Source: a virus
Lineage: Duplodnaviria; Caudoviricetes
DNA: 57,376 nt
Strand: one strand, 5' to 3'
IMG/VR virus record: IMGVR_UViG_3300023197_000044
Coordinates: 1-57,376 of that record
A model generated the notes under the pieces. The model saw only the letters and a list, made by a program, of their open reading frames with translations, ran no database searches and had not been told where the DNA came from. The number at the start of each line of letters is the position of its first letter. The stretch's first letter is position 1. Positions 376-57,376 of the stretch are shown here, in pieces. The position numbers and the translations under genes were made by a program.

Positions 376-1605
376 CTAAGGTTCAGTTGCCGCACCCGGC
401 TTCGCCCCTGCACCGTGCCGCGAGTCGAAGAACCCGAATCCCTCGACCTTCTCAGCGAACTTCCGGTAGCGATCTCCCATGTTGCGGTCGAGCGCCCCAG
501 GCGACACGTGCATGTACCGCTCCGTCACCGTAAGGGAGGAGTGTCCCATAACGTGCTTGATCGTCACTGCGTCGTAGCCCAACATCGCAAGCCACGACGC
601 GAAGGTGTGCCGGGTGGCTCCGTACAGGTCCATGTCGTCGTCCACGCCCTTGGCGTCTTCGATGTAGGACTTCACGTTGCGGGACAGGGTGCGGGTGCAG
701 AACGTCTCGCTCCGTGAGCCGGAGAACAGGTAGTCCGGGTCTCGCTTGCCCTCCATCGCGTCGGCAGCGACCTTTTCAGCCATCGCGCACATGGGCACCT
801 CGCGCCCGCGTCCCTTGTTACCGTCGAGAACGGGGGCCTTCACCCTACCCATTTCAAAGTTGATGTCCCCAACCTTGAGCTTCTGGATCTCCGAGGGGCG
901 CATTCCGGTTGCGGTCCCAAATTTGAGGATTGGCAAGATCCAGATGATTTCGTTCTCCTGGAGGCCGCTACGGCTCCCGTTCTCAACCCTCGCCTCGTAG
1001 TCCTCCCGGATCTCCTTTACCAGGGCGGCCCACTCGCTCGGCTCCAGGTACGAGGCCGTCTTGTCGCGCACCCTCGGCTTGCTTAGGGCCGACATTGGAT
1101 TGTCCGACTCCAGGATTAGGTCCTCCTCTTCCATCCACGCAAAGGCGGCGTGCAGGCGTGAGTACAGCGACTTCCGGTACGAGTCACTAAGCTCCTGGCG
1201 GTACACGTAGCCCTTCACGTCGTCCTCAGTGATACCGCCCGCCATTGGGCTCTCCTCTACGTAGTCGGACTGGAACTCCCGGAGCGTCACCCGAATGGTG
1301 CGCCTCGTGTTGTCGGTGATCCCTTCCCGTTCGATGTACCTGTCCAGGGCCTCGTCGAACGACACGCTCTCTCGCTTCTCCTTCGGTTCCCAGGGGTCGT
1401 AGGCGCCCCGCATGTAGGGGTCATGGTACTCCTGGTAGAATGTGCCCGCAACAGAGGCAGGGACCTCATCTACGGGGTTCTCCAGGTCCTCCTCAATCAC
1501 AACTCCCAGGTAGACCTTCTTTTGTGACGGGCTCCGGTGCGGGTCGTAAAAGTAGGCGTACAGAGACCCGTTGCTTCGCTGGCGCAACTTCGGCGATCTC
1601 GGCAT
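376..1605 (-). CDS. int: Tyrosine recombinase / phage integrase
   Basis: TGMRPSEI (catalytic R), TRHTFAS, MGHSS and TERYMH (catalytic Y); adjacent to att. Start taken at ATG 1605. Confidence 0.95.
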   Translation of the reverse strand: MPRSPKLRQRSNGSLYAYFYDPHRSPSQKKVYLGVVIEEDLENPVDEVPASVAGTFYQEYHDPYMRGAYDPWEPKEKRESVSFDEALDRYIEREGITDNTRRTIRVTLREFQSDYVEESPMAGGITEDDVKGYVYRQELSDSYRKSLYSRLHAAFAWMEEEDLILESDNPMSALSKPRVRDKTASYLEPSEWAALVKEIREDYEARVENGSRSGLQENEIIWILPILKFGTATGMRPSEIQKLKVGDINFEMGRVKAPVLDGNKGRGREVPMCAMAEKVAADAMEGKRDPDYLFSGSRSETFCTRTLSRNVKSYIEDAKGVDDDMDLYGATRHTFASWLAMLGYDAVTIKHVMGHSSLTVTERYMHVSPGALDRNMGDRYRKFAEKVEGFGFFDSRHGAGAKPGAATEP

Positions 1606-1628
1606 GGGGAGGAGGATAGGGGGCAAAT

Positions 1629-11597: not shown

Positions 11598-11668
11598 TGC
11601 AGTCGGGAAGGGACTCGAACCCCTCGGCCTCCGTCTTCGCGGTGTTCTGCCTCTGAACTACCGACCGC
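11598..11668 (-). ncRNA. Degenerate tRNA with shortened anticodon arm
   Basis: Acceptor GCGGTCG/CGACTGC, D arm GTTC-AGAGGCA-GAAC, T loop TTCGAGT; anticodon arm reduced to CCG-CGAAGA-CGG. Confidence 0.65.
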
Positions 11669-14079: not shown

Positions 14080-14146
14080 GGGATTGGTGTCTTTTGGTGT
14101 GAAGGAGTTGGGTACTCGCGCCGGGTAGGGCGCTTGCGCTTATCCG

Positions 14147-14220
14147 TGCCCCCGGCAGGAGTCGAACCTACGGCACGCGGCTTAGGAAGCCACCGCTCTG
14201 TCCGTCTGAGCTACAGGGGC
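14147..14220 (-). tRNA. tRNA-Arg(CCT), phage-encoded
   Basis: Cloverleaf with anticodon arm GTGGC-TTCCTAA-GCCGC and T loop TTCGACT. Confidence 0.93.
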
Positions 14221-14230
14221 GAATCTCCTC

Positions 14231-14539
14231 CTACTCGCTGGGTAGGTTTTCGCTTGCGTAGATACGGCGGCGCTCTTGAATGCCCAGGTTTTTCAGGCGG
14301 TAGGTGCGCTCGGTGGAGAAGCCCAGGGCTCGGGCCATGCGGAGGAGGGTGCCGATGCGCTCGTGACCGTCGGCCTTCATGGCGGCGTAACAGGCGTTCC
14401 GATGGATGCCTTTGCCACGGTCGGGGTCGGGGTTGTCGCATCGACGTGCGACAGCACAGGGGTTGAGATCGCGCCGCTCCATCTCCTCAGAGACGAGCGT
14501 GCGCAGTTGGGGCGCAGTCAGGTTCATGGGGACGTGCAT
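14231..14539 (-). CDS. Small putative HTH regulator (first gene of the replication operon)
   Basis: XRE-like pattern LRTLVSEEMERRDLNPCAVARR...IGTLLRMARALG. Confidence 0.55.
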   Translation of the reverse strand: MHVPMNLTAPQLRTLVSEEMERRDLNPCAVARRCDNPDPDRGKGIHRNACYAAMKADGHERIGTLLRMARALGFSTERTYRLKNLGIQERRRIYASENLPSE

Positions 14540-14578
14540 GGTTGTTTCGATGTAAGCGGGCGGTAACCCGCGAATGAA

Positions 14579-14615
14579 CTACAATTAATGTAGAGCCTAT
14601 CGTTAGCACAAGCAA
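14579..14615 (-). promoter_or_regulatory. Sigma70-like promoter with an overlapping inverted repeat
   Basis: Minus strand TTGCTT (14615-14610), 17 nt, TACATT (14592-14587); inverted repeat CTACA-ATTAA-TGTAG at 14579-14593. Confidence 0.65.
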
Positions 14616-16463: not shown

Positions 16464-16499
16464 GGTTGTCTTTCCTGTTGAGTGAGTGTTGAATGATTG

Positions 16500-20796: not shown

Positions 20797-21408
20797 TTAG
20801 CAGTTGTTCGCAATCAGGGCGTGAAGTGCCGATTTTTTCAGCATCTCGGCGTGCTCGTCGTCGTTGATCTGATTCGATGGGCTCCAGTATTCCATTACTT
20901 CCAGATCGTCGCCGATCTGTAGGAAAAAATCCCGGTAGGGCGGTCGGTCGTTGTGCCGGTTGTTTGCCCACAGGTGCATCCATCCGTCACGCCCGAATTT
21001 CAGTTCGGTGTGGAAGTGCTCAATGTCTTCGATGTCGAACGTGGACACAATCGTCGTCGAACCGTCGATGTCGAACGGTTCACTGGCATTGCCAAGACGG
21101 ATGAAAAACTGCCCCTGCCCCTCCGCTTCGCGGGCTTCGTCCTCGGCAATCTGTAGCTCGTCGAGCACACCAAAATCGGCGAGATAATTCCACGCCGCCT
21201 GTTCGTGCCCCGCAATGACTGCGACGGTGCGGAAATACGACGATTCGAACAGATACATCGTCGACGATCCGTAGGAGTCCGCCACGAGGCTCGTAAGCGT
21301 GTCGTCGCCTTCGATAACCGGCACATCCTCCGCTCGGCGTTCGTGCTTGTGCGGCATACTGTGCGCCGTTACAGTGATTCGCGGGCAGTTCTGCGTTGTG
21401 TCTTCCAT
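20797..21408 (-). CDS. Acidic hypothetical phage protein
   Basis: AAAAGACAACCATG at start. Confidence 0.75.
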   Translation of the reverse strand: MEDTTQNCPRITVTAHSMPHKHERRAEDVPVIEGDDTLTSLVADSYGSSTMYLFESSYFRTVAVIAGHEQAAWNYLADFGVLDELQIAEDEAREAEGQGQFFIRLGNASEPFDIDGSTTIVSTFDIEDIEHFHTELKFGRDGWMHLWANNRHNDRPPYRDFFLQIGDDLEVMEYWSPSNQINDDEHAEMLKKSALHALIANNC

Positions 21409-22400: not shown

Positions 22401-22704
22401 AACAAATCGGTTGTCTTATTTGTGGATGAATGTCGAGCCCGGTAAGGCCCGTTTCCGTTTCCCGTTTCCGTTGCCCCCTTTCCCCTTTCCTCGCAAGCTT
22501 ACACGGGGGGGAGGGGGGGGCGGTTGTGGTAGTTGGGTGAAGCCGTGGTATGTGAATATGTTCACACACATGCCGTTTATGGGGGCTGGAGTGCGGAAAA
22601 ATCATAAAGGGGGCGGGGGAGGGTTACTTGGCTTGCCCCGCTCTCAGACCAGCTCAATATATCACAGATCACCCCCCTATTAGCCCCCTCCATGACCCAT
22701 TGTT

Positions 22705-22730
22705 TGTACGTATATACGTACAGGTATAAT
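22705..22730 (+). promoter_or_regulatory. Perfect 18-bp palindrome next to a TATAAT box in the divergent early/late region
   Basis: TGTACGTATATACGTACA (22705-22722), then GG and TATAAT (22725-22730). Confidence 0.6.
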
Positions 22731-22884
22731 TAACTGCGACCCACACCGCAAAACCGATTGCCGCATTATGAAATTACCTGTACCATGATGGTACGCTGAC
22801 GCCGGAAGGCACAGCCTCTCAGAGGCCCTTTACTCTCTTACCGGAAATTAGAGGGTCTGAACACGCACATACACAAAGACAACC

Positions 22885-24469: not shown

Positions 24470-24655
24470 ATGCTGATAGACCACTTCTCTCCGATCCGGC
24501 GCACTACCCACCGCACGCCCCCGAAATACCGGCGCATTGCGGTCAAGCTGGCGAAGGGCTACCCGCTTGCCGAGGTAGGCTACCTGTTTGGCGTTTCAGG
24601 CGCCGCAGTGCAGAAGTGGGTAGAGGATGATAAGCGGTACAACCCCAACTCATAA
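24470..24655 (+). CDS. Small HTH protein
   Basis: GYPLAEVGYLFGVSGAAVQKWV; hairpin and AAAGACAACCATG at start. Confidence 0.75.
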   Translation: MLIDHFSPIRRTTHRTPPKYRRIAVKLAKGYPLAEVGYLFGVSGAAVQKWVEDDKRYNPNS

Positions 24656-24683
24656 CTGAGGGCTTACCGGCCCCAAGACAACC

Positions 24684-27435: not shown

Positions 27436-27735
27436 GGTGGTTGTCTATGCTGAATAAGGAGCTTTGAGCGCACGATAACGCCCATCAGGATTATATGTAT
27501 CAGACTTGCCAATAGCGAGTCTGGAAACGCACTGGGGGGCAGGGGGGGGCGATAAAATGGGAGGGATGCCCGTCCCCGCAAGATGCCGTTAAAACTACCT
27601 TGATGATGGAGTCTCCTATGTCCTTTCAGGCTCACGTTGAGTAGCTTGCACGAGTTGTTAATTGGGCCTTATTGGCTGCGGCTAACATCCTCTCCCAAAA
27701 AGCTACTCTTTGCATAAAGCGCACAGTCGCCCTCC

Positions 27736-29034
27736 ATGTCCATTCTCTCTTACTTTGAGGACGTTCCGTGCGGGATCAATGATGGGTCAGCGAAAGCATC
27801 TTTGAGAGAAAAAATTTCCGGCCTACAGGAGAATCTAATCAGAATACCATCCGGTAATCCTGACGATGTAGTTGATACTTTCCTGGATAGCTATAAGGAG
27901 TTGAGGAATAATGGCTATACTGTGTCTCCCAACTCTGCTTTTGCTTGCCTGTTTGACCTATTGGTTAGTGCCAAATACGCTGAAAGACTGGTATCTGACG
28001 ACGGGTGGACCTACTGCGCGGGACATGATATTAATGAAGGACCCTCACTTTATTTTCCATACATGAAGACATGTCCAAGATGTAGTGTGAGTAAGGGAAT
28101 AAAGCCAAAGATTGATTCGAATAAACCTACGTCAGGTAGTATAGGAGATATAAGTGAGAATAGTAACTATCAGATTTTCAGACATATACTATCTCACATA
28201 TCTCCAGATGTAAAAATGGGGAAGGATAAAAGAACGCGGTCAGATGTTGACGTAGTTATATATAATAATGATCGGTTGATTTTGGGCGAAACTAAATCAT
28301 CTCCACTTGTCCTGTACCCACTGGAGATACAGCTTGGGAGACAGCTTACAGAAGTTAAGGAGGGCGAATCTGTGGGGAAGACAGACCATACCCCTGCCAC
28401 TAAGGATGTTATGGATAATGATATTTATATGTTTATACCACATCGTGCAGAGCGTATTCCGTTAGGTGATGCGAGTGGTGACGATTGGCCTTATGAAGGT
28501 ATTAATGAATATATAGATGAACCTTCGAATATAAGATTTCTAATTGATGCTTGGAATGAGCTTTACGATGTGTACAAGTCTAACCCTCGTGGTGATGAGG
28601 ATCTGAAAAGATATATTTTATGTGGTAACGGGTCCAGTTTGGATGATGCCAGTACATCAATAGACGATTCAAAAAACAAACCTGGCATGGACCGAACAGA
28701 TGACATTAAAAAGGGAACATACCAGTCACTAAAATATGGCACATACTTCAAGGAGAAGTCAGAAAACCGAAAAATAAGTGCAGTTATAGCAACAAATATG
28801 TTCCCATTAAGGACTTATAAAAGGTATTTAGCGGAAATGGTGAGGGTGGTCTGGACGAAAGAAAAATATTCCCAAAATGTAAATATAGATTTAGACAACT
28901 ATGACCTAAAAGCATTTAAAAAAGATGATCTTTTCTATTTATATGATGCTATAATTGGCCTAAGCGAATCTATATACATGGACGAGGGTATTAAGTCCCT
29001 AATTAGTATTGATGAGTACATGTCACAAGAATAA
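27736..29034 (+). CDS. Putative type II restriction endonuclease (PD-(D/E)xK with Zn-binding Cys)
   Basis: DVDVVIY...GETKSS, CPRC; AT-rich; directly upstream of a methyltransferase. Confidence 0.72.
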   Translation: MSILSYFEDVPCGINDGSAKASLREKISGLQENLIRIPSGNPDDVVDTFLDSYKELRNNGYTVSPNSAFACLFDLLVSAKYAERLVSDDGWTYCAGHDINEGPSLYFPYMKTCPRCSVSKGIKPKIDSNKPTSGSIGDISENSNYQIFRHILSHISPDVKMGKDKRTRSDVDVVIYNNDRLILGETKSSPLVLYPLEIQLGRQLTEVKEGESVGKTDHTPATKDVMDNDIYMFIPHRAERIPLGDASGDDWPYEGINEYIDEPSNIRFLIDAWNELYDVYKSNPRGDEDLKRYILCGNGSSLDDASTSIDDSKNKPGMDRTDDIKKGTYQSLKYGTYFKEKSENRKISAVIATNMFPLRTYKRYLAEMVRVVWTKEKYSQNVNIDLDNYDLKAFKKDDLFYLYDAIIGLSESIYMDEGIKSLISIDEYMSQE

Positions 29035-29035
29035 T

Positions 29036-30922
29036 ATGAAAAACAGTATGGAGGTGCTTCTTAAACTTCGCCACAACATCGACCTTGAGGGAGATGTGAC
29101 CCTGGCGGAAATGGAGATTGAGAGCCTAATTCAGGGTGATGCTCGCCCAGTCAAGGACTTTAGTGATCTCACGATTGCAAGTGACTGTGCCTCTCAGCTT
29201 AACGGCCCTGGTAGACCTGATGAGTTTGTTCGTGATAGTGGGGTGCTGGGCTACGTAGCGACAGTTACGGGTGAAGAGTTAGCAGCACTTATCGAGCGGT
29301 CTTCATTCGTACAGAATATCTACTTCACACTTCCGGTAGGCTCTGATGAGCAGTCCTTCCTGAACTCGTTAAGGGATCGGGTCGGCCCCGTAGTCCATGA
29401 CGTGCAGGGGCCGGAGAGCGTGGTGGTGAATGCGGTACCGCACTATGCCCTCATAGAACTATCGGACCCGGTTGCTCGGCGGGCCAATCATCGGCGAGGG
29501 GTAAGGAGAAAACTCAATGCTCTCCTTGAGGCCCTTCTTGGTCGCTCCGGTGATGACCTGCTTCGGCTTACCGAAAAGGCTATTGCAGCCAAAAATACGA
29601 CATCTCACCTTACTCACGACATCCACTACTACAAGGCAAAGTTTTTTCCGCGATTGGCTCGGGCAGCTCTCAACGTCAGTGCTGCGCGTCATGGTAGGGG
29701 CAGTCAGCGGGTTGTCGACAACTTCGTTGGGAGCGGTACGACATTGGTTGAGGCATCCTTGCTTGGCATGCCCAGTGTAGGTATCGACATTGATCCTCTC
29801 TCCGTTCTCATATCAAGGACGAAAATTGAGGTGTTAAGCCGATCTCCAGACTTGGTAGCAAATCAGGCTGATAGCGTTCTTGGGATTCTGGACTCACTCG
29901 ATTCGGGCCAAGCCAGTTTATTTAGTGACAATGGAGTATCGCAATCAGATTACGCCATGTCGTTCCCCTCATGGCTTATGAAAAATAGCAATATGAATGA
30001 GGAGAAAGCAGAGGAGCTGATACATCAAATCAATATCGTAAGGAGGTCTCTCGATCAAGCAGGATTGGGAGATGATCCGATGTTGAGGACTATTATGTCC
30101 GACGCGATTGACAGAAAGATCAAGCTGCGGTTTTTAGGGACTGGAGTTGGAAGATTCTCTCTTAGATTCACAAAGGCGAGTATTCCCACCAGATTTTCTC
30201 GCTCACTGAGAAAGTACGTAAGGGTGTCAGAGGCTATTGACTGGCTCAAAGATACGCTCGGAATTACTTTTGCCGATGCTGAGGTATTTCACGATGACAC
30301 CCGCGACCTTCGGGGTGACTACGGGAAATTCGATGTCCTCCTCACATCCCCACCGTATCTGCCCGCTGCAAGTGGGCGAGAGAGTTATTCAAAAGCGAGG
30401 GCAGCATCGTTGATAGCTCTCGGAATGGAAGATGCGGAGAGCGTCAACGACTTGATAGATGGGGCTGTTGGAGCAATGGGTGACAGTGACATAGACCAAG
30501 ACTCTCTCACCGAGGATCAGCGAGACCTTGTGGAGTGGCTTGAAAATGATGAACTTAGGCAGATTAAAGCAGCACCAACGGCTCGCTACTTCCAGGACAT
30601 GAGGAAGACATTTAATGAGATGAGAGGGTTGGTAAAAGGGGGTGGGACTGCTATAATGGTAAGTGGAAAACAGAGCACATTCTACGAGTTTGAGTCGCGT
30701 GAAAAGCTGTATGTTGTGGAGTCAGCGGAACTGCTGTCCGATGAGGCAAAGATGAGTGGTTTCGAGGTTGAAAAACTACAAGATGTTAAGCTGCAAAAAT
30801 CTAATAGTAACGCAAGGCCAAGGTCATTGGATGATTACTATGAAACACTTATATACTTGAAGAATCCACAGCCCACGGGACTTAGAGCAGAGACAGAAGA
30901 AGGCAAGTATGCGTCGGCTTGA
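29036..30922 (+). CDS. DNA amino-methyltransferase (probably N4-cytosine)
   Basis: HYYKAKF, motif I DNFVGSGTT, GIDIDP, motif IV TSPPY. Confidence 0.9.
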   Translation: MKNSMEVLLKLRHNIDLEGDVTLAEMEIESLIQGDARPVKDFSDLTIASDCASQLNGPGRPDEFVRDSGVLGYVATVTGEELAALIERSSFVQNIYFTLPVGSDEQSFLNSLRDRVGPVVHDVQGPESVVVNAVPHYALIELSDPVARRANHRRGVRRKLNALLEALLGRSGDDLLRLTEKAIAAKNTTSHLTHDIHYYKAKFFPRLARAALNVSAARHGRGSQRVVDNFVGSGTTLVEASLLGMPSVGIDIDPLSVLISRTKIEVLSRSPDLVANQADSVLGILDSLDSGQASLFSDNGVSQSDYAMSFPSWLMKNSNMNEEKAEELIHQINIVRRSLDQAGLGDDPMLRTIMSDAIDRKIKLRFLGTGVGRFSLRFTKASIPTRFSRSLRKYVRVSEAIDWLKDTLGITFADAEVFHDDTRDLRGDYGKFDVLLTSPPYLPAASGRESYSKARAASLIALGMEDAESVNDLIDGAVGAMGDSDIDQDSLTEDQRDLVEWLENDELRQIKAAPTARYFQDMRKTFNEMRGLVKGGGTAIMVSGKQSTFYEFESREKLYVVESAELLSDEAKMSGFEVEKLQDVKLQKSNSNARPRSLDDYYETLIYLKNPQPTGLRAETEEGKYASA

Positions 30923-31066
30923 GGTAATGAATTAGAGGTGCGCCTCTCCTGATTCGTTAACAAGTAGAAGGGGGGTAGATAGCTCCGGAGGCTTGAAAGG
31001 AGACTGGCCCGATGGCGGGTGTGGGGCTCTTTATCCTCTTTCCCAATAAGATCGACCAGATTACAG

Positions 31067-31705
31067 GTGAATTACCTCCGACACGTTCTTGCAGCCTCAT
31101 TTTTACTCTTTCTCGCTGCCCCTGCCCCCGCACAGGTAGAGCCAGGGCAGACCTTCGCCGGAAAGGTTGTAGAGGTCACAGATGGGGACACGTACGACGT
31201 GCGCCGCTCAGATGGGCAGACGCTGACGGTCCGGCTCCACGGGATAGATGCGCCCGAAAGCGCACAGTCCTATGGCACGCAGGCGACGAGGGCAGCCCGA
31301 CGCTACGTAGGAGGGAAGCGGGTTCGCGTCTCAGTTGAGGACATAGGCCGGTACGGGCGTACCGTAGCCACTATCAGGGTGCAAGGCGGAGACTTGGGAG
31401 AGATGCTGATCCGTGACGGCCTTGCATGGTACTACGAAGATTACGCTCCCGGTGCAACTGACTATGCTCGACTGGAGCGACAGGCCCGCAACGCGAACCG
31501 TGGTTTGTGGTCCCAGCCCTCACCTACGCCTCCGTGGGAGTGGAGGAGTAGGAGTTCTGAGGAACCGGAAAAAGACCGTAACTGCTCCGACTTTGATACT
31601 CAACCGGAGGCCCAGGCTTTCTTTGAGAGGCACCAGCCGGGTGATCCTCACAATTTAGATGGTGACGGAAATGGCGAGGCGTGTGAGGGTCTACCTGGAG
31701 GTTGA
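31067..31705 (+). CDS. Secreted thermonuclease (SNase) with a C-terminal Excalibur Ca-binding domain
   Basis: Signal peptide, [27 protein letters not shown]; NCSDF...[15 protein letters not shown]. Confidence 0.9.
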
Positions 31706-31840
31706 CGAGACCCCGAGCGGATTTCGTAGTGGGGCCGAGAGGTGTTTTTGAAAATGCGGGGGGAGGCGCGTTATAGTTACGTTAGTGTCAGCGGGGACAT
31801 GCTCATGAAGGTATAAGTTCAATTCTCGACTTAGCAGATC

Positions 31841-34120
31841 ATGATTCGCGTCTGCAAGAAGATAAAGCGTGTCGGTCGTTTTGTCGATTTTAGCTCACAG
31901 GGAGAGGACTTTAGGGAACTGACCCTTATATACGGCGAAAATGGTAGTGGCAAAACAACCTTAGCACGTCTCTTCCGCTCACTTGGCACAGGGGATACGA
32001 ATATACTTCAAGCTCTGCATACGTTTGGGAAGAGCGACCCTGCGCGAGTAAAAATAAGTACTGATCAGGGAAATGCAGTATTAAGTAATTGGGCGTGGAG
32101 TAGTACTATAGATGGAATAAAGATATACGATTCAACGTTTATATATGATAATGTATTTGCAGGTGATGTTGTTGAGAATAGGCATAAGACAAATATGTAC
32201 CGTTTAGTAGTCGGCGAAAAGGGGGTTGAGTTGAGTAGACAAGAGGAGGAATTAAAAAAGACAGTTAAGTCGTTAAAAGACAAGTTAGATAGTATAGGTT
32301 TAAAAATTAAAAATAAAATAGAAAGTGACTTAGATATAGACGATTATGTAGAAATTGAGAAAGATGGAAAAATAGATAATAGAATAGAAAACAAGAAAAG
32401 CGAACTAGAAAGGGCTAAAAGTATAAAAAATATATTGACCAAGGATGGGCTTAAAAGTATTGATGGGGTGGATATAAGCACGGACTTGCTGGAGGATGTT
32501 CTGGAAGAGTCAATTGATGATGTATCAAGGAGGGCGAGGGAGAAAGTACAGGATCACTTGGATGAGCATCTGGGGAGTGGGGCAGAGCGATGGGTAGAGA
32601 GAGGTTACAAGTATTCGGGGGAGGAGGGGGATGAGTGCCCGTACTGCGGGCAGGATACCACAGGCGTGGATTTAGTTGAAGCGTATGATGACTATTTTAG
32701 TGATGAATATGATGAGCTAAAAAAGAAGATTTCGAGACGAAAAGACGAGGTGGTAGATAAGCTAGGAGCCCAAAAACTCGGAAAGATAAGGGAAACATTG
32801 AATGTAAACAATGAGAGATTTAATTTTTGGAGTGATCACATTGAAGGGGATTTACCTAATCTAGGATTTGATGAGGTCGAGCAGGTATGGAAAAATACTA
32901 GAGAGGAGGTAATAAATAACATAGAAAGAAAGGACAAAAATGTACTTGAGAGTATATCAATAAGTGAAGAGCTAAAAAGTGCACTGGAGGAATTTAAGAG
33001 AATAAAAAATAGAATAGAAAAATACAACGATAAAATAGATAAGTTAAACAGCAAAATAGAAAGCGCTAAAGAGGATACGGAAAAGGGTGATAGGCGGAGC
33101 ATAAGAAGGGAGTTAGACAAGCTAAAGGATGTTAAGAATAGACACAAGGAGCACATCAATGCCTTATGTGCAACTTATAAAAAAGTAGATAATGAGATTG
33201 AGAGGGCTAAGAGTGAAAGGGAGGAGGCAAGAAAAAAGTCAGATAAGCACACAAAAAGGGTATTTGAAGAATATGAAAAAGATATAAACAATCTTTTGGA
33301 TAAATTTGGTGCCAATTTTGGCGTATCAGATATAAGAGCCTCAAGAAGAGGTAAGAGGGTTAGCTCTAAATATGACATCGAAGTAGGGGGAGAATATGTC
33401 GGACTTGAAGGGTCTGGGGTGGAAGAGGGGGATCCTGAGTTTAGGACAGCCCTTAGTATTGGTGACAGGAATACCCTTGCTTTTACACTATTTTGCGTTA
33501 AAATGAGAAACTTATCTCTTGATGATAAAATTGTTATTATTGATGATCCCGTAACAAGCCTGGATATACACAGGGAAGAAAATGCAGCACGAGAAATTAT
33601 AAAGATAGCAAACGAGGCACAACAGGCTATTGTCTTATCACACAATCCCCACTTTTTAAATGTTATACGTAACCATAGAAAAAATGGTCTCAACAACCAG
33701 CTTCTTAAGGTTAACATGAAAGGTGAGCAAAGTGTCGTAAGGGAGTGGGATATAAATGAAGACCTAAGAAATGCATTCAGAAGAGACGTTAATAAGATTA
33801 AATCGTTTGTTCATAATGGGCAAGGTGAAGAAATGTCTGTATTAAGGTCTATAAGGCCCATGCTTGAAACATATATTCAAGTTGTGTACCAGGGTGAGGT
33901 GAACCCCAATGATACTATTGGTAGCTATATTGACGATATAAAGGGTGCAAGTGGTAATGATCCTCTCACCAAGTTACAGGGCGTAGTAGATGAGCTTGAG
34001 GATATCAAGGATTTCACAGATCCCTACATGCACGGAAGCGCCTCTCCGCGCCCAAAACCACCGCAACACAATCTTGTCGAGAGCTATGCCAGCAGAGCAC
34101 TCGACATAATCGCACCGTAG
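31841..34120 (+). CDS. AAA_13 / RloC-like SMC-type ATPase with zinc hook and probable C-terminal HEPN domain
   Basis: GENGSGKT, coiled coil, CPYCGQ, LSIGDR, IDDPVTSLD, LSHN; C-terminal RPMLETY...PYMHG; AT-rich. Confidence 0.82.
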   Translation: MIRVCKKIKRVGRFVDFSSQGEDFRELTLIYGENGSGKTTLARLFRSLGTGDTNILQALHTFGKSDPARVKISTDQGNAVLSNWAWSSTIDGIKIYDSTFIYDNVFAGDVVENRHKTNMYRLVVGEKGVELSRQEEELKKTVKSLKDKLDSIGLKIKNKIESDLDIDDYVEIEKDGKIDNRIENKKSELERAKSIKNILTKDGLKSIDGVDISTDLLEDVLEESIDDVSRRAREKVQDHLDEHLGSGAERWVERGYKYSGEEGDECPYCGQDTTGVDLVEAYDDYFSDEYDELKKKISRRKDEVVDKLGAQKLGKIRETLNVNNERFNFWSDHIEGDLPNLGFDEVEQVWKNTREEVINNIERKDKNVLESISISEELKSALEEFKRIKNRIEKYNDKIDKLNSKIESAKEDTEKGDRRSIRRELDKLKDVKNRHKEHINALCATYKKVDNEIERAKSEREEARKKSDKHTKRVFEEYEKDINNLLDKFGANFGVSDIRASRRGKRVSSKYDIEVGGEYVGLEGSGVEEGDPEFRTALSIGDRNTLAFTLFCVKMRNLSLDDKIVIIDDPVTSLDIHREENAAREIIKIANEAQQAIVLSHNPHFLNVIRNHRKNGLNNQLLKVNMKGEQSVVREWDINEDLRNAFRRDVNKIKSFVHNGQGEEMSVLRSIRPMLETYIQVVYQGEVNPNDTIGSYIDDIKGASGNDPLTKLQGVVDELEDIKDFTDPYMHGSASPRPKPPQHNLVESYASRALDIIAP

Positions 34121-35057: not shown

Positions 35058-35239
35058 AGGGAGTCCTAAACTATCTTGTTTGCACCGCGCTATCTGTGGG
35101 GCTGTATTCTCGTTCTGCGGGACGTAGAATGCCGGTAGTGTCTACCCCCTTGATTGCAGAGATCGCCAGCAACGGCGCGGGCGCAAGCGCGAGCGCAGGA
35201 TTTTATCCTCAAGAGTCGTGTTTACACCCCACCCGAAGC

Positions 35240-36637
35240 CTATTCAGGCTCCTCGGCTGGCGAGGTTTGCCCAGGCTCGGTCGAGTCCTTGTCCGAGGGG
35301 GATGGCTCCTCTTTATCCGCCGCTGTCTCCTGGGTCTTCGTGCGGGCCTCAGCGAGGTCTTCCTGAGTAAGCACCTCGTCAGTGTCCTTCGGCATCGGGA
35401 TGCCCAACTCGTCGTAGGCGTGCTGGCGTGGGACCTCCATGCCCATGCCCAGGGCCTTCTCAAACAGGTCGGCCTTTTTGGACTTCTCCTCGGGGTTCGG
35501 CACCACGATGTAGACCCGTGGCACATCCATGATCGGGAAGTCCGGCGCGATGTTCGTCTTGCACAGGAAGTGGACGGTCGGGTGAAGTGCCTCCTCCGTC
35601 ATGCCTGCAATCGCTTTAACGATCTCGTAGCGGATCGAGTCGAGCATGATGCCCTCCCCGTAGGACCCGTTCTCCGAGCGCCCGGAGGAGCCGATCTGAC
35701 CGACGATAGCCTTCGAGACTTGCTGGTCGGCGACTTGAACCACGTCCTCGTAGGTTTTGACCTGTCCCATGTCCGGCATGATGAACTCGAACTCGTTCGA
35801 CGAGGGCAGGATTGCCCACGCGGCGCGTCCAAGCTGCTTGAGGAACTTGCGCATCTCCGTCCGATCCTCCTCCGCGCTCCAGGCGTCGTAGTAGCCGACC
35901 CGAATGGGCTCTCCGTAGGTCTCGTTAAATTCGTTCCACCACTTCGCATTGAAGTGTTTTGCGCAGTACCAGAACAGGCATGTGCGGCCCACGCCCGCCA
36001 GATCCCAAAACCCGTCGCGCTCTGCGTCAGAGATTTTGGTAAGCGAGCCAGCGGGCAGGGAGGAGAGCGGCGTGCCTTCCGGGGTGTCGCGGTCCAGGAT
36101 GCGGAGATTGCCGTAGTCCTCTTCGTCGTGACGCATCTCCATCTCGTAGCGAGTCGGCGGCACGAGGTCGAGCCCTTCGAGGAGCGTGATGCCGTCCTCG
36201 CCGCCCTGAACCCGGTAGTTATTTTCGTAGAGGCGGACGCCCGTGAAATGAACCTTTGCCATCGAGCGGATCGCTTGCCGCGTCTTGAGGGCGGGGTTTT
36301 GGAGCACCGTTTCGATCATCTCAGCCGCTTCGAGGGCCTGCGGGGACCGCGAGGCGGCAGGTGAGACGCGCAGGGGGTAGTCCGAGAGCGCCATGCCCAG
36401 CTTGTTCACCTCGCCGCGAAGGTGCGGGTCGGTGGCGATCATCTTCATGTAGGACTCCTGGAGGAGCCCGATGCTGCCCTTGTTCGCTTGGCGCACAGCC
36501 CGAGAAATGAACTCCGGGGTTAGCTCTTCGGGAATGACTCCGAGCCGGTCCTGTCCCTGGGGCGCGAGCATACCGCCGCCAGAGGACCAGCCCATGTAGT
36601 CGCCCACTTTCTTTTGCAGCGATCCGACAATGGACAT
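35240..36637 (-). CDS. Portal protein (Mu gp29 / DUF935 family)
   Basis: WNEFNETYGEPIRVGYY, VSKAIVGQ, YDELGIPMP; start refined to ATG 36637 by the leader motif. Confidence 0.9.
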   Translation of the reverse strand: MSIVGSLQKKVGDYMGWSSGGGMLAPQGQDRLGVIPEELTPEFISRAVRQANKGSIGLLQESYMKMIATDPHLRGEVNKLGMALSDYPLRVSPAASRSPQALEAAEMIETVLQNPALKTRQAIRSMAKVHFTGVRLYENNYRVQGGEDGITLLEGLDLVPPTRYEMEMRHDEEDYGNLRILDRDTPEGTPLSSLPAGSLTKISDAERDGFWDLAGVGRTCLFWYCAKHFNAKWWNEFNETYGEPIRVGYYDAWSAEEDRTEMRKFLKQLGRAAWAILPSSNEFEFIMPDMGQVKTYEDVVQVADQQVSKAIVGQIGSSGRSENGSYGEGIMLDSIRYEIVKAIAGMTEEALHPTVHFLCKTNIAPDFPIMDVPRVYIVVPNPEEKSKKADLFEKALGMGMEVPRQHAYDELGIPMPKDTDEVLTQEDLAEARTKTQETAADKEEPSPSDKDSTEPGQTSPAEEPE

Positions 36638-37099
36638 GGGGTAGGTTGTCTTCGGTGAATGGGAGGCAGGGCCGGTAAGCCCCGGAATAGCGTACTCCCA
36701 AGGTACGACATGGGGCAGGGATCGCAAGCGGTTGGGCGAGGGCGGGCACAGAGCACGCACTCACGTATGCACAGGTGCGCCCCTCGCGCATGCATGTACG
36801 ACTGCACGCAGGCACGCCCCTACGCATGGGCGCCCCCACGTCCCACTCACCATACGCTGTCCTGCCATCCCTGTCCCCTGCTCTCTTTCGCACCTATCGG
36901 AAAGCCCCCCTCCAAGGCGCCTTCGTGTGCGCGTGCGTCCGTGGAAGGCTCCCCACCCAGCGGGGGACCCTCACTCAGGGGCCACTTTTCTTCACAGTCG
37001 GGGGCCTGTATCCGCTATCGCAATCGGGCGCGGAAGGGTACATTGGGTTGAAGTTGAAAGCAAGGATTCGCGGCACCCTCTTTACACCGCACTCAGCGA

Positions 37100-37648
37100 A
37101 TGGCAGGCAAGGCGCTCACATACAGCGAGCCGAACGAGTTACGGGACCGAATGCCGGACTCGGACCTCGTTGAGCTTACGACTGAGGGCAGCGAGGCGCC
37201 GTCTGACATTGAGGCGTTCCTGGATGCTGCGATTGAGGCGGCGAACGGAACCGCCACGGACCCCACGGACGACGAGGAGAAGGTAGGACGGCTGATTCGT
37301 CAAGCCCTGGTCCATGGGGAGGGTCGAGTCAATAGCCGCGTAGGGGCCGCCTATGACCTCCCTGCGCTCGGCCCGGATGGCACGCCGCCCCCAGAGATTC
37401 AGGATGCGGTGCTCGTCTTGGCAGAGGAGAAGATCCGTGACCGGCGCCCCAGGCGTAGCCGAATGAACAACGACGTTGCGGACATCACGCGACGCGCCGA
37501 CGAGATTCGGAGGTGGTTAAAGGCAGTCTCCAACGGCAACGCAATCATCGCACGTCTCAACGAGACCAGCACCGAGGAGACCGAGAAGAGCGGGGCCGAC
37601 ACCGGCATTGCCTCTCGCGGTAACCGCTCATTTTCCCACGGCTGGTAA
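37100..37648 (+). CDS. Mu gp36-like head-tail adaptor (DUF1320)
   Basis: YSEPNELRDRMPDSDLVELT, VNSRVGAAYDLP, RWLKAVSNG. Confidence 0.82.
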   Translation: MAGKALTYSEPNELRDRMPDSDLVELTTEGSEAPSDIEAFLDAAIEAANGTATDPTDDEEKVGRLIRQALVHGEGRVNSRVGAAYDLPALGPDGTPPPEIQDAVLVLAEEKIRDRRPRRSRMNNDVADITRRADEIRRWLKAVSNGNAIIARLNETSTEETEKSGADTGIASRGNRSFSHGW

Positions 37649-37677
37649 CCCCATCGGAAAGCACCCCATCGGAAAGC
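37648..37677 (+). repeat. Tandem 15-bp repeat ACCCCATCGGAAAGC x2
   Basis: Direct observation; related copies occur at 14707, 15490, 15550, 34850 and 36891. Confidence 0.85.
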
Positions 37678-37694
37678 ACAAGTAAGTTAGCGAG

Positions 37695-53832: not shown

Positions 53833-53943
53833 TGAGCACAGGTGTAAGCGGAACCCCTGGCGAGGACGTGCCCGATTGGGTACCTTGGGAGTGTAGTTGA
53901 TTGAGGGGCTTACCGGCCCCCATAATCCCAAGACAACCATGAC

Positions 53944-55162: not shown

Positions 55163-55226
55163 CGAGCACGCGACGAACTCACTCTACGGGTGCTTACCGG
55201 CGCCCTACAACAACCAATAGACAACC

Positions 55227-56594
55227 ATGGATATCAGCTATCAGGAATTGCGCAACCGAATGGCGAATCAGTACCGCAGAAAGATTCTGGAGGACGGTTG
55301 GGGCCGTCACCGGATCGCCGACGACGCCTCGGCGAAGTACGGTTTCGGGGTGTCCCGGAAGCAGGCCCGCAAGGTAATCAACCGGGTCCGGGAAGAGGCC
55401 GACGCCCCGCCCGAGGTTGGCGACGTGGTAGAGGTTCACACCCCGGAGTCCGATGTGGACTACGAGAACGGCGAGGCGAGCACCGTATCGGCCCGCCCCA
55501 TGACGATGGACGAGGCTATCGAGCACCTGGGCATCAACGAAGAGGACTGGAGGATCATCCGTCCGAAGGTGGGCACGTACGAGGGGCAGTGCAAGGTGGA
55601 TGTGGTGACCGGCTACGACGCCGAGGACGAACCGATCACCGAGCAGGAGCACCGCGTCAAGACGATGTATAAGTTCGAGTTCGCCCTGGAGCGGCGCCAC
55701 CCTGCCGAGACTGAGGCATTCGCCGACAAGCTCCTCGAACAGGTCGCCGACGAGGCCCCGATCTACCGAGCCAACATCCAGCAGCCGAAGACGGGGAACC
55801 TGATGCGGCTGCACATCCCGGATCTCCACGTGGGCAAGGAGGGGTACCAAGCTGACTGGTCTCCCGACTCGGTCCGTGAGCGCGTCTTTCGCGTCCTCGA
55901 CGAGTTCGTTGCCCTGGCAGAGCAACACGGAGTGGACCGGATCTCCTGGCCCCTGGGGCACGACATCCTCCAGGTAGACCGCACCTTCGAGCAGGGCAGG
56001 GCGGGAGGAGGGGGTACCCTCAGCACCACGTCCAGCGGCACGCCGGTCACCTCGGCAATGCCGTGGATCGAACAGTTCCTCCTTGGCTGCGACCTCGCAG
56101 AGCAGATCGCCCGTCGCCTATTGGAGGTAGCGCCCCTGGACATCAACGTCGTTCCCGGCAACCACTCCGAGCAGTCCGAGATTGCCATTGGGCGCGTGAT
56201 GATCGCGGAGTTCAGGAATAGCCCGGACGTGCGGGTCAACCTCGACTCCAGCCGAGACAAATACTACGAGTGGGGCGTCAATGGCTTCATGGACACGCAT
56301 GGAGACACCGTGAGCTTCAAGAAGCTCGCTATGGCATTCGCCACCTCCAACGGAGAGCTTTGGGGCAAGAGCAAGTGGCGAGAGGTCAACGTGGGGCACA
56401 AGCACGTCACCAAGAAGCGCCCGGTGGGTATCCGAAGCAATGAGACAGGCGGGTGCTGCGTTTACATCTCGCCCTCACTGAGCCCACAGGACGAGTGGCA
56501 CGCGAAGTACCACTACCACGGAATGCCGGGTGCCCAGGCGTTTATGTACCACAAGGAGCGCGGCCCCTTTGCCAACTACGAGCGGTTCTTTTAG
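55227..56594 (+). CDS. Calcineurin-like metallophosphoesterase with an N-terminal extension
   Basis: DLHVGK, GHDIL, PGNH, HGD, GHKH motifs. Confidence 0.85.
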   Translation: MDISYQELRNRMANQYRRKILEDGWGRHRIADDASAKYGFGVSRKQARKVINRVREEADAPPEVGDVVEVHTPESDVDYENGEASTVSARPMTMDEAIEHLGINEEDWRIIRPKVGTYEGQCKVDVVTGYDAEDEPITEQEHRVKTMYKFEFALERRHPAETEAFADKLLEQVADEAPIYRANIQQPKTGNLMRLHIPDLHVGKEGYQADWSPDSVRERVFRVLDEFVALAEQHGVDRISWPLGHDILQVDRTFEQGRAGGGGTLSTTSSGTPVTSAMPWIEQFLLGCDLAEQIARRLLEVAPLDINVVPGNHSEQSEIAIGRVMIAEFRNSPDVRVNLDSSRDKYYEWGVNGFMDTHGDTVSFKKLAMAFATSNGELWGKSKWREVNVGHKHVTKKRPVGIRSNETGGCCVYISPSLSPQDEWHAKYHYHGMPGAQAFMYHKERGPFANYERFF

Positions 56595-56664
56595 TGCGGA
56601 TTGTGGGCTTAACCACCTATTCACCGGAATCTTGGGGTTGTGGCACAGGTCAGGCTTGAGAAGA

Positions 56665-56718
56665 ACTTGCAACTACGACCCGGTGACTTGCAACTACACC
56701 CCGACCATGTTATATAAA
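56665..56718 (+). promoter_or_regulatory. Predicted promoter of sRNA-A with an overlapping direct repeat
   Basis: TTGCAA (56688-56693), 17 nt, TATATA (56711-56716) with extended TG; ACTTGCAACTAC at 56665 and 56686. Confidence 0.65.
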
Positions 56719-56720
56719 TA

Positions 56721-56814
56721 TGCCTGCTTAGGCAAAACAAAGGCGGTTTTAGCATGGTTGTCTTCCCGCCTGATAGTGCCCGCATCGCCCCAACGGTGTG
56801 GGCATTTTCTATTT
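56721..56814 (+). ncRNA. Predicted sRNA-A, antisense to the phage-wide AAGACAACCATG start motif
   Basis: Hairpins TGCCT-GCTT-AGGCA and AGGCGG-[TTTTAGCATGGTTGTCTTC]-CCGCCT; terminator TGCCCGCATCG-CCCCAA-CGGTGTGGGCA-TTTTCTATTT. Confidence 0.7.
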
Positions 56815-56833
56815 GTGTGCAGCCTAAGCAAGC

Positions 56834-56958
56834 AAAGAAAAGGGCCGCAGCCGATACCTTCCCTGGCTACGACCCGAGCGGTATAGGGCCGTTGGCGCCG
56901 GTAGGCACCCTCTCATTTCTCTTCGGCCCTCTGGTTGTCTTCGCCGTCTACTTGTCTG
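56834..56958 (-). ncRNA. Predicted sRNA-B carrying the sense motif and the YUACCG hairpin (decoy-like)
   Basis: Minus strand CGGC-[GAAGACAACCAGAGG]-GCCG and GGTGC-CTACCG-GCGCC; terminator GGGTCGTAGCC/GGCTGCGGCCC-TTTTCTTT; TATATT at 56968-56963. Confidence 0.58.
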
Positions 56959-57136
56959 CGACAATATAGAGGATCTTAAACCGCATTGTACTCCAGCGGC
57001 GCGAGTTCACGTGGTCCTCTTAGTCTTCGGTCGCAGGCGCCCGCGCACGAGAGAGCCCTGCTCATGGGCAATATGGGAAAAGCATCTCGCACCAACTCCG
57101 ACTCAGCGCCCACAGACCCGGGTTTTCGCGTTTCCT

Positions 57137-57158
57137 ATGGGCAAATAATGGTAAAAAC
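57137..57158 (+). repeat. Putative integrase arm-type site, right copy
   Basis: Identical to 187-208. Confidence 0.7.
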
Positions 57159-57183
57159 AGGTTCATTTTCCGGGACGATCAAT

Positions 57184-57220
57184 AAAAAAAGCCCGCCCCC
57201 GGCAATTCGGGATCGGGCTT
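57184..57220 (-). terminator. Intrinsic terminator just inside the right att
   Basis: Minus strand AAGCCCGATCCCG-AATTGC-CGGGGGCGGGC followed by TTTTTTT. Confidence 0.75.
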
Positions 57221-57269
57221 GAGCGTTTCTGTGGGCTGATTGGTGGTTCTGAGGGGCGCCAGTGCATAC

Positions 57270-57320
57270 CCGACACACGGCTTTTCAGGCCGTTGCTCTA
57301 CCACCTGAGCTACCTGGCCC
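57270..57320 (-). repeat. att core, right copy: truncated tRNA-Phe 5' fragment lacking the T arm and 3' acceptor strand
   Basis: Identical to 77-127; the sequence diverges at the start of the T arm. Confidence 0.97.
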
Positions 57321-57376
57321 CAGCTGATTGCAGATCAGCGGTGGTGGGCACGCGGCCCACGCGTATCGAATGTAGG

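Follow-up and report, generated by a model that had tools for sequence, protein, structure and literature searches.

Two exact copies of the 12-bp sequence ACTTGCAACTAC lie upstream of a predicted small RNA in the non-coding right arm of a prophage, at 56665-56676 (+) and 56686-56697 (+) of the window, that is, the whole 57,376-bp stretch of DNA analysed here, which is a complete IMG/VR virus record. They are the only exact copies in that record, and their starts are 21 bp apart, which is two helical turns and places both on the same face of the DNA. An earlier, sequence-only reading had reported this repeat and its period, and both were confirmed. Our best explanation, put forward tentatively, is that the 12-mers are tandem same-face sites for one DNA-binding protein that would control the predicted sRNA promoter. 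Taken alone, the repeat would be one more candidate operator, and a handle for finding the sRNA regulator in a poorly studied group of halophile phages. Its weight comes from what lies downstream, a predicted, conserved small RNA with a loop antisense to the start signal of ∼20 genes.

The prophage and its right arm

The window is a prophage integrated at tRNA-Phe. The tRNA-Phe gene (52-126) adjoins a tyrosine integrase gene (376-1626, minus strand; Pfam PF00589, E = 2.1e-21), and a 51-bp stretch of it (77-127) is present again at 57270-57320, these being the att cores. The core corresponds to the 5′ part of tRNA-Phe. The integrase end has the complete tRNA and the opposite end only a fragment of it, so the phage genome itself appears to include the 5′ half. 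All 10 terminase matches in the phage collection were to Salinibacter phages (30-33% identity), and near relatives of the right end were found in hypersaline-lake metagenome runs; both results point to a Salinibacter-like halophile as the probable host. The replication genes are in the left arm of the window. The last gene of the rightward operon encodes a 455-aa phosphoesterase/DNA-repair-exonuclease-like protein (55227-56594, plus strand; phrog_704, E = 1.2e-38), and between it and the right att core is a 675-bp stretch without a convincing gene, which holds the 12-mer repeat. Two exonuclease-like proteins with 85% and 82% identity to this one are encoded on contigs of 3.5 and 3.2 kb.

In the circular form, this arm joins the core, and excisionases and integrase arm domains are known to bind phased direct repeats. 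The 12-mers might on these grounds be arm-type integrase or excisionase sites of attP, an interpretation we hold to be highly improbable. They are ∼590 bp from the 51-bp core, and a better arm-site candidate flanks that core, a 24-nt direct repeat, C(C/T)ATGGGCAAATAATGGTAAAAAC, that bears no sequence likeness to the 12-mer. It is found on both arms beside the att core (185-208 and 57135-57158), with a weaker copy at 57063-57085, and integrase arm-type sites are probably located at this repeat. In one X1 contig the match extends to 57158 and continues with sequence like that of the window from 209 onward; this jump may simply reflect the left end of the prophage placed on the similar 24-nt repeat, and no conclusion is drawn from it. 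The same arm carries a strong minus-strand terminator ∼50 bp inside the right att core (57189-57220; 13-nt arms, then TTTTTTTA). In the circular form this terminator is downstream of int across attP; in the integrated state it would block transcription entering from the tRNA fragment.

Sequence and statistics of the 12-bp repeat

The likeness between the two copies extends to 18 nt at 89%, and 16 of the 21 columns of the period agree. The five mismatched columns are all within the 9-bp spacer, giving 12/12 identity within the 12-mers versus 4/9 in the spacer. A clean run of 12 columns among 21 with five differences has p = 0.037 if the phase is fixed and 0.072 if it is free. Each 12-mer also has an internal near-dyad, ACTTGCAACT, with four of five symmetric pairs around TTGCAA.

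The window has four places (21029, 22448, 37648 and 56665) at which a sequence of at least 12 nt is exactly and directly repeated with a spacing of 12-40 bp, compared with a mean of 0.145 in 200 dinucleotide-preserving shuffles, 9.5% of which held at least one. With three other such repeats present, the 12-mer pair belongs to a class of local repeat of which this genome holds several. It is real and mildly beyond chance, statistically suggestive at most. Tandem Repeats Finder did not report it. The other three are a 13-nt direct repeat with copies 36 bp apart (21029-21077), a direct repeat of CCCGTTTCCGTT with a 13-bp period in a divergent intergenic region (22448-22472) and a 17-nt direct repeat with a 15-bp period (37648-37679).

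No further copies of the 12-mer were found elsewhere in the phage when the whole record was searched. With up to two mismatches allowed, ACTTGCAACTAC had four matches, compared with 2.24 expected, a number reached by 20 of 100 shuffles. Nor is this an iteron or tandem array, with three or more regular copies beside a replication gene: there are two copies, and one degenerate copy 98 bp away. The degenerate copy, TTGCCAACTACGAGCGGT (56569-56586, plus strand), is in the last codons of the exonuclease-like gene and aligns to the distal copy together with its spacer, with a score of 21 that was reached by 1.7% of 1000 shuffles. It falls within the codons for the conserved C-terminus of the protein, where F448 and A449 are invariant.

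The sequence-only reading had linked the 12-mers to AACTACA words at two other places. The word is indeed present at 14577 (+) and at 53892 (−), with nine copies in the window versus 2.55 expected, but the link is unsupported: the 7-mer is all that is shared, and neither place matches the 12-mer within two mismatches. The word at 14577 belongs to a palindrome, CTACAATTAATGTAG (14579-14593), and the place at 53892 has nine bases in common with the proximal copy. The palindrome is 40 bp upstream of a 102-aa ORF (14231-14539, minus strand) with a faint antidote/HTH-like hint (E = 0.095).

A metagenome scan for the motif pair returned 114 matching stretches, with a median GC of 0.41. By inspection, these were unit-length tandem arrays or AT-rich unrelated DNA, and they shared nothing with the window beyond the motif; thus, the scan points to neither a regulon nor a homologous locus. 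Many unrelated metagenome contigs have tandem arrays of the 11-mer ACTTGCAACTA and arrays of 20-22-bp period containing CTTGCAACTA, and these have no relation to the present locus (array-bearing loci include L009, L011, L013, L015, L020, L043 and L063).

The predicted small RNA

The fold and the contigs of relatives define a predicted sRNA of ∼90 nt (56723-56812, plus strand) composed of three hairpins, at the 5′ end, in the middle and at the terminator. Folded from 56721, the plus strand forms the three hairpins at −40.7 kcal/mol (z = −4.76), and none of 200 shuffles folds as well. The minus strand of the same stretch reaches −29.1 kcal/mol (z = −1.28), and 22 of 200 shuffles are as good, the weaker fold being due to three G-U pairs in the terminator stem. 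The terminator itself (56775-56806, plus strand), a hairpin of 13 pairs, seven of them G-C, followed by TTTTCTATTTGT, is the best on this side of the window. In an Rfam search of the locus no family reached its gathering score, the best being RF02278 with 19.7 bits versus 50 (E = 0.26).

The locus has two of the features by which a base-pairing sRNA gene is judged, namely a strand-specific stable fold with a terminator and U-tract, and conservation beyond that of its neighbours, and the unit appears to behave like a real plus-strand RNA gene. An sRNA-like unit had been proposed downstream of the repeat, and the strand-specific fold, the terminator and the conservation in relatives all strengthen that proposal. 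A 71-aa plus-strand ORF called in the source record (56754-56969) was rejected; it is without a relative and runs through the terminator.

Conservation in relatives and the origin of the repeat

Comparative data came from tables of metagenome contigs matched at 80% likeness, and the positions of differences given here are among those listed. X1 record 3 matches 56721-56808 with six differences and two gaps, behind 47 nt of unlike upstream sequence. X5 record 26 matches 56723-56767, which is the 5′ half of the sRNA up to the contig end, behind 183 unlike nucleotides; X5 record 27 matches 56765-56812, and a third X3 contig begins near 56721, as inferred from bin depths. In X3 record 10 and its X5 counterpart, the exonuclease-like gene has 28 differences and four gaps over 131 nt. 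Over 56747-56808, X3 record 10 has five differences and one gap in 62 nt, and since it differs less there than in the gene, the unit 56721-56812 is better conserved than the adjacent gene, with limits that coincide with those of the predicted transcript. The listed indels (56737, 56741, after 56746 and after 56764) are all in unpaired parts of the sRNA fold, and the substitution G56776A in relatives changes a G-U pair to an A-U pair.

The repeat does not always accompany the sRNA, as X1 record 3, X5 record 26 and the third X3 contig match from 56721-56723 only. In X3 record 10, the sequence from the gene end to 56747 could not be aligned, and its record coordinates imply that it is ∼69 nt shorter. 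The sole contig covering the repeat, X3 record 13 (56551-56749), has 28 differences and four gaps. Among the differences listed, nine are in the 31 nt of 56625-56655 and none is in 56656-56675, an interval that takes in the distal copy and the preceding 9 nt; the proximal copy is outside what the listed differences can judge. The repeat region thus seems to have been kept in one lineage, a conclusion drawn in part from the listed differences.

These observations bear on a different account, in which the repeat is a duplication relic without a dedicated factor. About 20 bp of the 3′ end of the exonuclease-like gene would have given rise to a downstream copy, which was itself duplicated; the proximal of the two would happen to supply the −35, or have been co-opted as one, and the distal copy would be idle or generic upstream DNA. 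The degenerate third copy in the gene suggests just such stepwise copying of the gene's end, and the three further short-range repeats in the window (12 bp or more), the lack of another site for the 12-mer in the phage, the failure to find a regulator, and the relatives that have the sRNA unit behind unlike upstream DNA, one with a shorter spacer, all agree with it. We hold this rival to be a close one, only slightly less likely than protein sites: zero changes in 12 columns versus five in nine would not be expected of a relic, nor would a spacing of exactly two turns, a near-dyad inside each copy, or the lack of any listed difference over the distal copy in X3 record 13 beside nine differences in 31 nt. 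A duplication origin would also be compatible with a present use of the 12-mers. If the repeat is a duplication scar only, it marks the end of the exonuclease-like gene as a recombination point.

Candidate promoter and its control

The proximal copy contains a −35-like hexamer, TTGCAA (56688-56693, plus strand), which agrees with TTGACA at four of six positions and is itself a 6-bp palindrome. It is followed, with a spacing of 17 bp by our reading, by the element TGtTATATA (56708-56716, plus strand), an extended −10 arrangement in which TG is at 56708-56709 and a −10-like TATATA at 56711-56716. Both elements were read by eye. They would start the RNA near 56723 and place the centres of the distal and proximal copies at about −54 and −33, respectively. 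The claim that the second copy lies over a −35 box is therefore upheld by reading, but a consensus scan gives no promoter: it found zero promoter-like sites in 56000-57376, the scan demanding a T at position 6 of the −10. Matches to a sigma-70-type consensus were not above those in shuffles anywhere in the window. Since the scanner omits the site and consensus matches are not enriched in the window, the TTGCAA-TGtTATATA promoter is plausible as a reading and is not a result. Sigma-54 and ECF-type promoter readings were also checked by eye and rejected, as their spacings misfit. The Bacteroidetes-type −7 box consensus, TANNTTTG, had 13 matches in the window versus 10.8 expected, none of them at the locus.

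In the arrangement that we tentatively favour, one protein would bind both 12-mers and set the activity of the promoter TTGCAA-17 bp-TGtTATATA, which would drive the conserved plus-strand sRNA of ∼90 nt (56723-56812). The near-dyad in each 12-mer would suit one dimer per site, with the two dimers in cooperative contact. With the −35 lying under the proximal site, the protein would either occlude RNA polymerase, in the manner of the P2-type C repressors, or recruit it, as XylS/AraC or lambda CII would. We infer promoter firing, protein binding and the sign of control, and the sign (block or help) is not something that can be read from the sequence. The earlier suggestion that the repeat is an induction input, responding to DNA damage or osmotic stress, found no support.

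The identity of 12/12 versus 4/9, the 21-bp phasing, the overlap with the −35, the near-dyads and the retention of the distal copy in X3 record 13 all support protein sites. So do the signs that the downstream unit is a genuine plus-strand RNA gene, the poor support for both overlapping reading frames, and the precedent of established regulators that bind such repeats over a promoter element. Against this stand the lack of another copy of the 12-mer and of a consensus promoter, the 9.5% shuffle rate and the silence of Tandem Repeats Finder, together with the decayed third copy, the unlike DNA upstream of the sRNA in relatives and the shorter spacer of X3 record 10. Three overlapping ORF lists (37, 51 and 25 entries) were scanned for a regulator gene and none was identified, the best weak hints being E = 0.095 for ORF 14231-14539 and E = 0.019 for ORF 24470-24655; a divergent repressor protein may nevertheless be encoded in the window.

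Comparison with known direct-repeat sites

Set beside known direct-repeat promoter sites, the 12-mer pair appears as a new case. The C operators of P2 are made of non-palindromic 8-bp direct-repeat half-sites, 22 bp apart centre to centre. In P2 they span the −10, whereas those of P2 Hy dis span the −35; both half-sites are needed and binding is cooperative (PMC2995052). The 12-mers likewise form two direct repeats about two helical turns apart, within the two to three turns that would mark such an operator. The proximal copy holds a −35-like hexamer, here of a promoter read by eye and not reported by the consensus scan. Unlike the P2 sites, the repeat is 12 bp long and the putative product is an sRNA near attR, not an early lytic operon. 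A cognate small HTH C-like repressor was not recognised in the scanned ORF lists (37, 51 and 25 entries).

XylS/AraC-type sites have a 21-bp period, and the AraC I1-I2 sites offer a parallel. XylS binds two direct repeats at Pm, each taken by one protein unit, with the proximal repeat next to or over the −35, and the XylS half-site begins with TGCA (PMC5481539), which is shared with the 12-mer. The 12-mers, too, are two direct repeats of which the proximal one touches the −35-like hexamer. Unlike these sites, the 12-mer is without a bipartite A-box/B-box form, and no AraC-family regulator was found in the window. A third comparison is with lambda CII, for which TTGC-N6-TTGC straddles the −35 of PRE, PI and PaQ, the last of which makes an antisense RNA. 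CII binds direct repeats (PMC2995052), and the 12-mers share with its sites the presence of TTGC-containing direct repeats at the −35. Unlike the CII sites, the TTGC words at 56667 and 56688 are separated by N17, so that the spacing is 21 bp and not 10 bp.

The start signal of the phage and the loop of the predicted small RNA

The 9-mer AAGACAACC, with at most one mismatch, occurs 41 times in the window (22 exact) versus 10.4 expected, and none of 100 shuffles came near this number. Nearly every copy has the orientation of a real ORF and stands 0-8 nt upstream of its ATG, most often abutting it as AAGACAACCATG, and the motif is without a Shine-Dalgarno core; examples are at 16464-16472 (−), 22876-22884 (+), 24675-24683 (+) and 55218-55226 (+). 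AAGACAACC/AAGACAACCATG is thus a stereotyped start signal of this phage. Salinibacter phage M31CC-1 has similar A/C-rich, Shine-Dalgarno-less leaders, and no exact AAGACAACC was found in 50 kb.

The non-coding arm itself has two exact minus-strand copies of AAGACAACC (56756-56764 and 56933-56941). The second has no start codon within 8 nt and is in a region outside the coverage of the relatives. A second structured RNA around it was considered and rejected (z = 0.36 for the plus strand, 56813-57060, and −1.85 for the minus strand). The first, as a perfect AAGACAACCATG, leads a 44-aa minus-strand frame (56621-56755) that crosses the −10-like box and both 12-mers. The copies would then be read as a repeated Ser-Cys-Lys in a Cys-rich peptide, and the plus-strand RNA would be the antisense partner of its gene, in a type I toxin-antitoxin-like arrangement. 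The motif stands at offset 0 before the ATG, as at many real genes of the phage, and the plus-strand unit overlaps the start region, as is seen with antisense regulators of small toxic peptides. We nevertheless regard such a gene as very unlikely. The frame has a GC3 of 0.52 and a codon z of −0.13, compared with GC3 of 0.68-0.81 and z of 3.1-6.2 for all nine other motif-led small ORFs (27-121 aa); no homologue was found among 5.8 billion or 1.84 billion proteins; and the nine listed substitutions of X3 record 13 are spread over codon positions 1, 2 and 3 as 2, 4 and 3. Three contigs of relatives cease matching at codon 11-12, and the peptide, as read from its sequence, has no hydrophobic helix. 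The frame is probably not translated, and since this evidence speaks against a gene, the copy at 56756-56764 is better read through its plus-strand complement in the sRNA loop than as a gene start.

That complement, CATGGTTGTCTT (56753-56764, plus strand), is in the apical part of the middle hairpin and is exactly complementary to AAGACAACCATG. The sRNA loop, CAUGGUUGUCUU, is the exact antisense of AAGACAACCAUG and has a mean unpaired probability of 0.57. Uninterrupted pairing of 11-14 bases is possible between the 20-nt loop and 20 other places in the phage (22 sites in total when its own locus and the second arm copy are included), and 16 of these 20 places include the ATG of an ORF of at least 46 aa; shuffled loops have 0.145 such complementary places on average, with a maximum of two. 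The loop-to-start duplexes have a median of −19.9 kcal/mol, compared with −9.1 for random windows (loop-only energies). This complementarity is to be expected from the abundance of the start motif, and by itself it does not show that the RNA acts.

A further, speculative step, which we think unlikely to be correct as it stands, would make the 12-mer repeat the point of control for a translational switch, RNA-based and genome-wide, that acts on the start signal of the phage. This signal is on ∼20 genes, including replication-arm genes, the endolysin and the exonuclease-like gene. An sRNA made by the prophage would cover the AAGACAACCAUG start sites of phage genes and so would silence the lytic genes of the phage itself and those of superinfecting kin simultaneously. 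The protein that reads both 12-mers would decide when the sRNA block is set or lifted.

RNA-based phage immunity or antisense control is known from the c4 RNA of P1/P7, the CI RNA of P4 and the sar RNA of P22. These too are small prophage RNAs with loops that pair with short repeated targets at ribosome-binding regions. They have one or two targets, whereas here ∼20 gene starts share the putative target, as judged from sequence alone. If the predicted sRNA is made and pairs, it would represent a one-RNA, many-gene form of phage immunity.

The start signal itself resembles the Start-Associated Sequences of Cluster K mycobacteriophages: these are also a stereotyped short motif a few bases before many ATGs in one orientation, for which single opposite-orientation copies were noted and the choice between an RNA and a protein as binder was left open by the authors (PMC3203893). 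The likeness concerns AAGACAACC, not the 12-mer, and AAGACAACC differs from the Cluster K sequences in being without a Shine-Dalgarno core and in mostly abutting the ATG. Were the switch true, it would explain why phages have start-associated sequences, a question open since their first description (PMC3203893). Action of the sRNA would be a first function for such sequences, and the 12-mers would then be the input of the lysis-lysogeny state or of a host signal.

Other features of the window

A perfect 16-bp palindrome, GTACGTATATACGTAC (22706-22721), is directly before a TATAAT box (22725-22730). The first rightward gene (22885) lies ∼150 bp downstream, and the palindrome is a likely operator for the main switch. 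A low-GC island (27700-34100; GC 0.38-0.50 versus ∼0.60) separates the terminase and portal genes. Its ORFs include a DNA methyltransferase-like one (29009-30922) and one for an AAA_13 ATPase (31841-34120, E = 2.6e-48), and the island is probably an acquired defence or restriction-type cassette. Two long frames overlap at 35240-36760 (−) and 35096-36364 (+). The minus frame has a portal match (phrog_113, E = 1.2e-56) and is led by AAGACAACC at 36644-36652, which together assign the portal gene to the minus strand, although the structural block around it is otherwise rightward. The prophage also carries a tRNA-Arg(CCT) (14146-14220, minus strand), as well as a borderline tRNA-like element (11600-11666, minus strand) that scores 29.0 bits, exactly the Rfam threshold, and is not called by ARAGORN.
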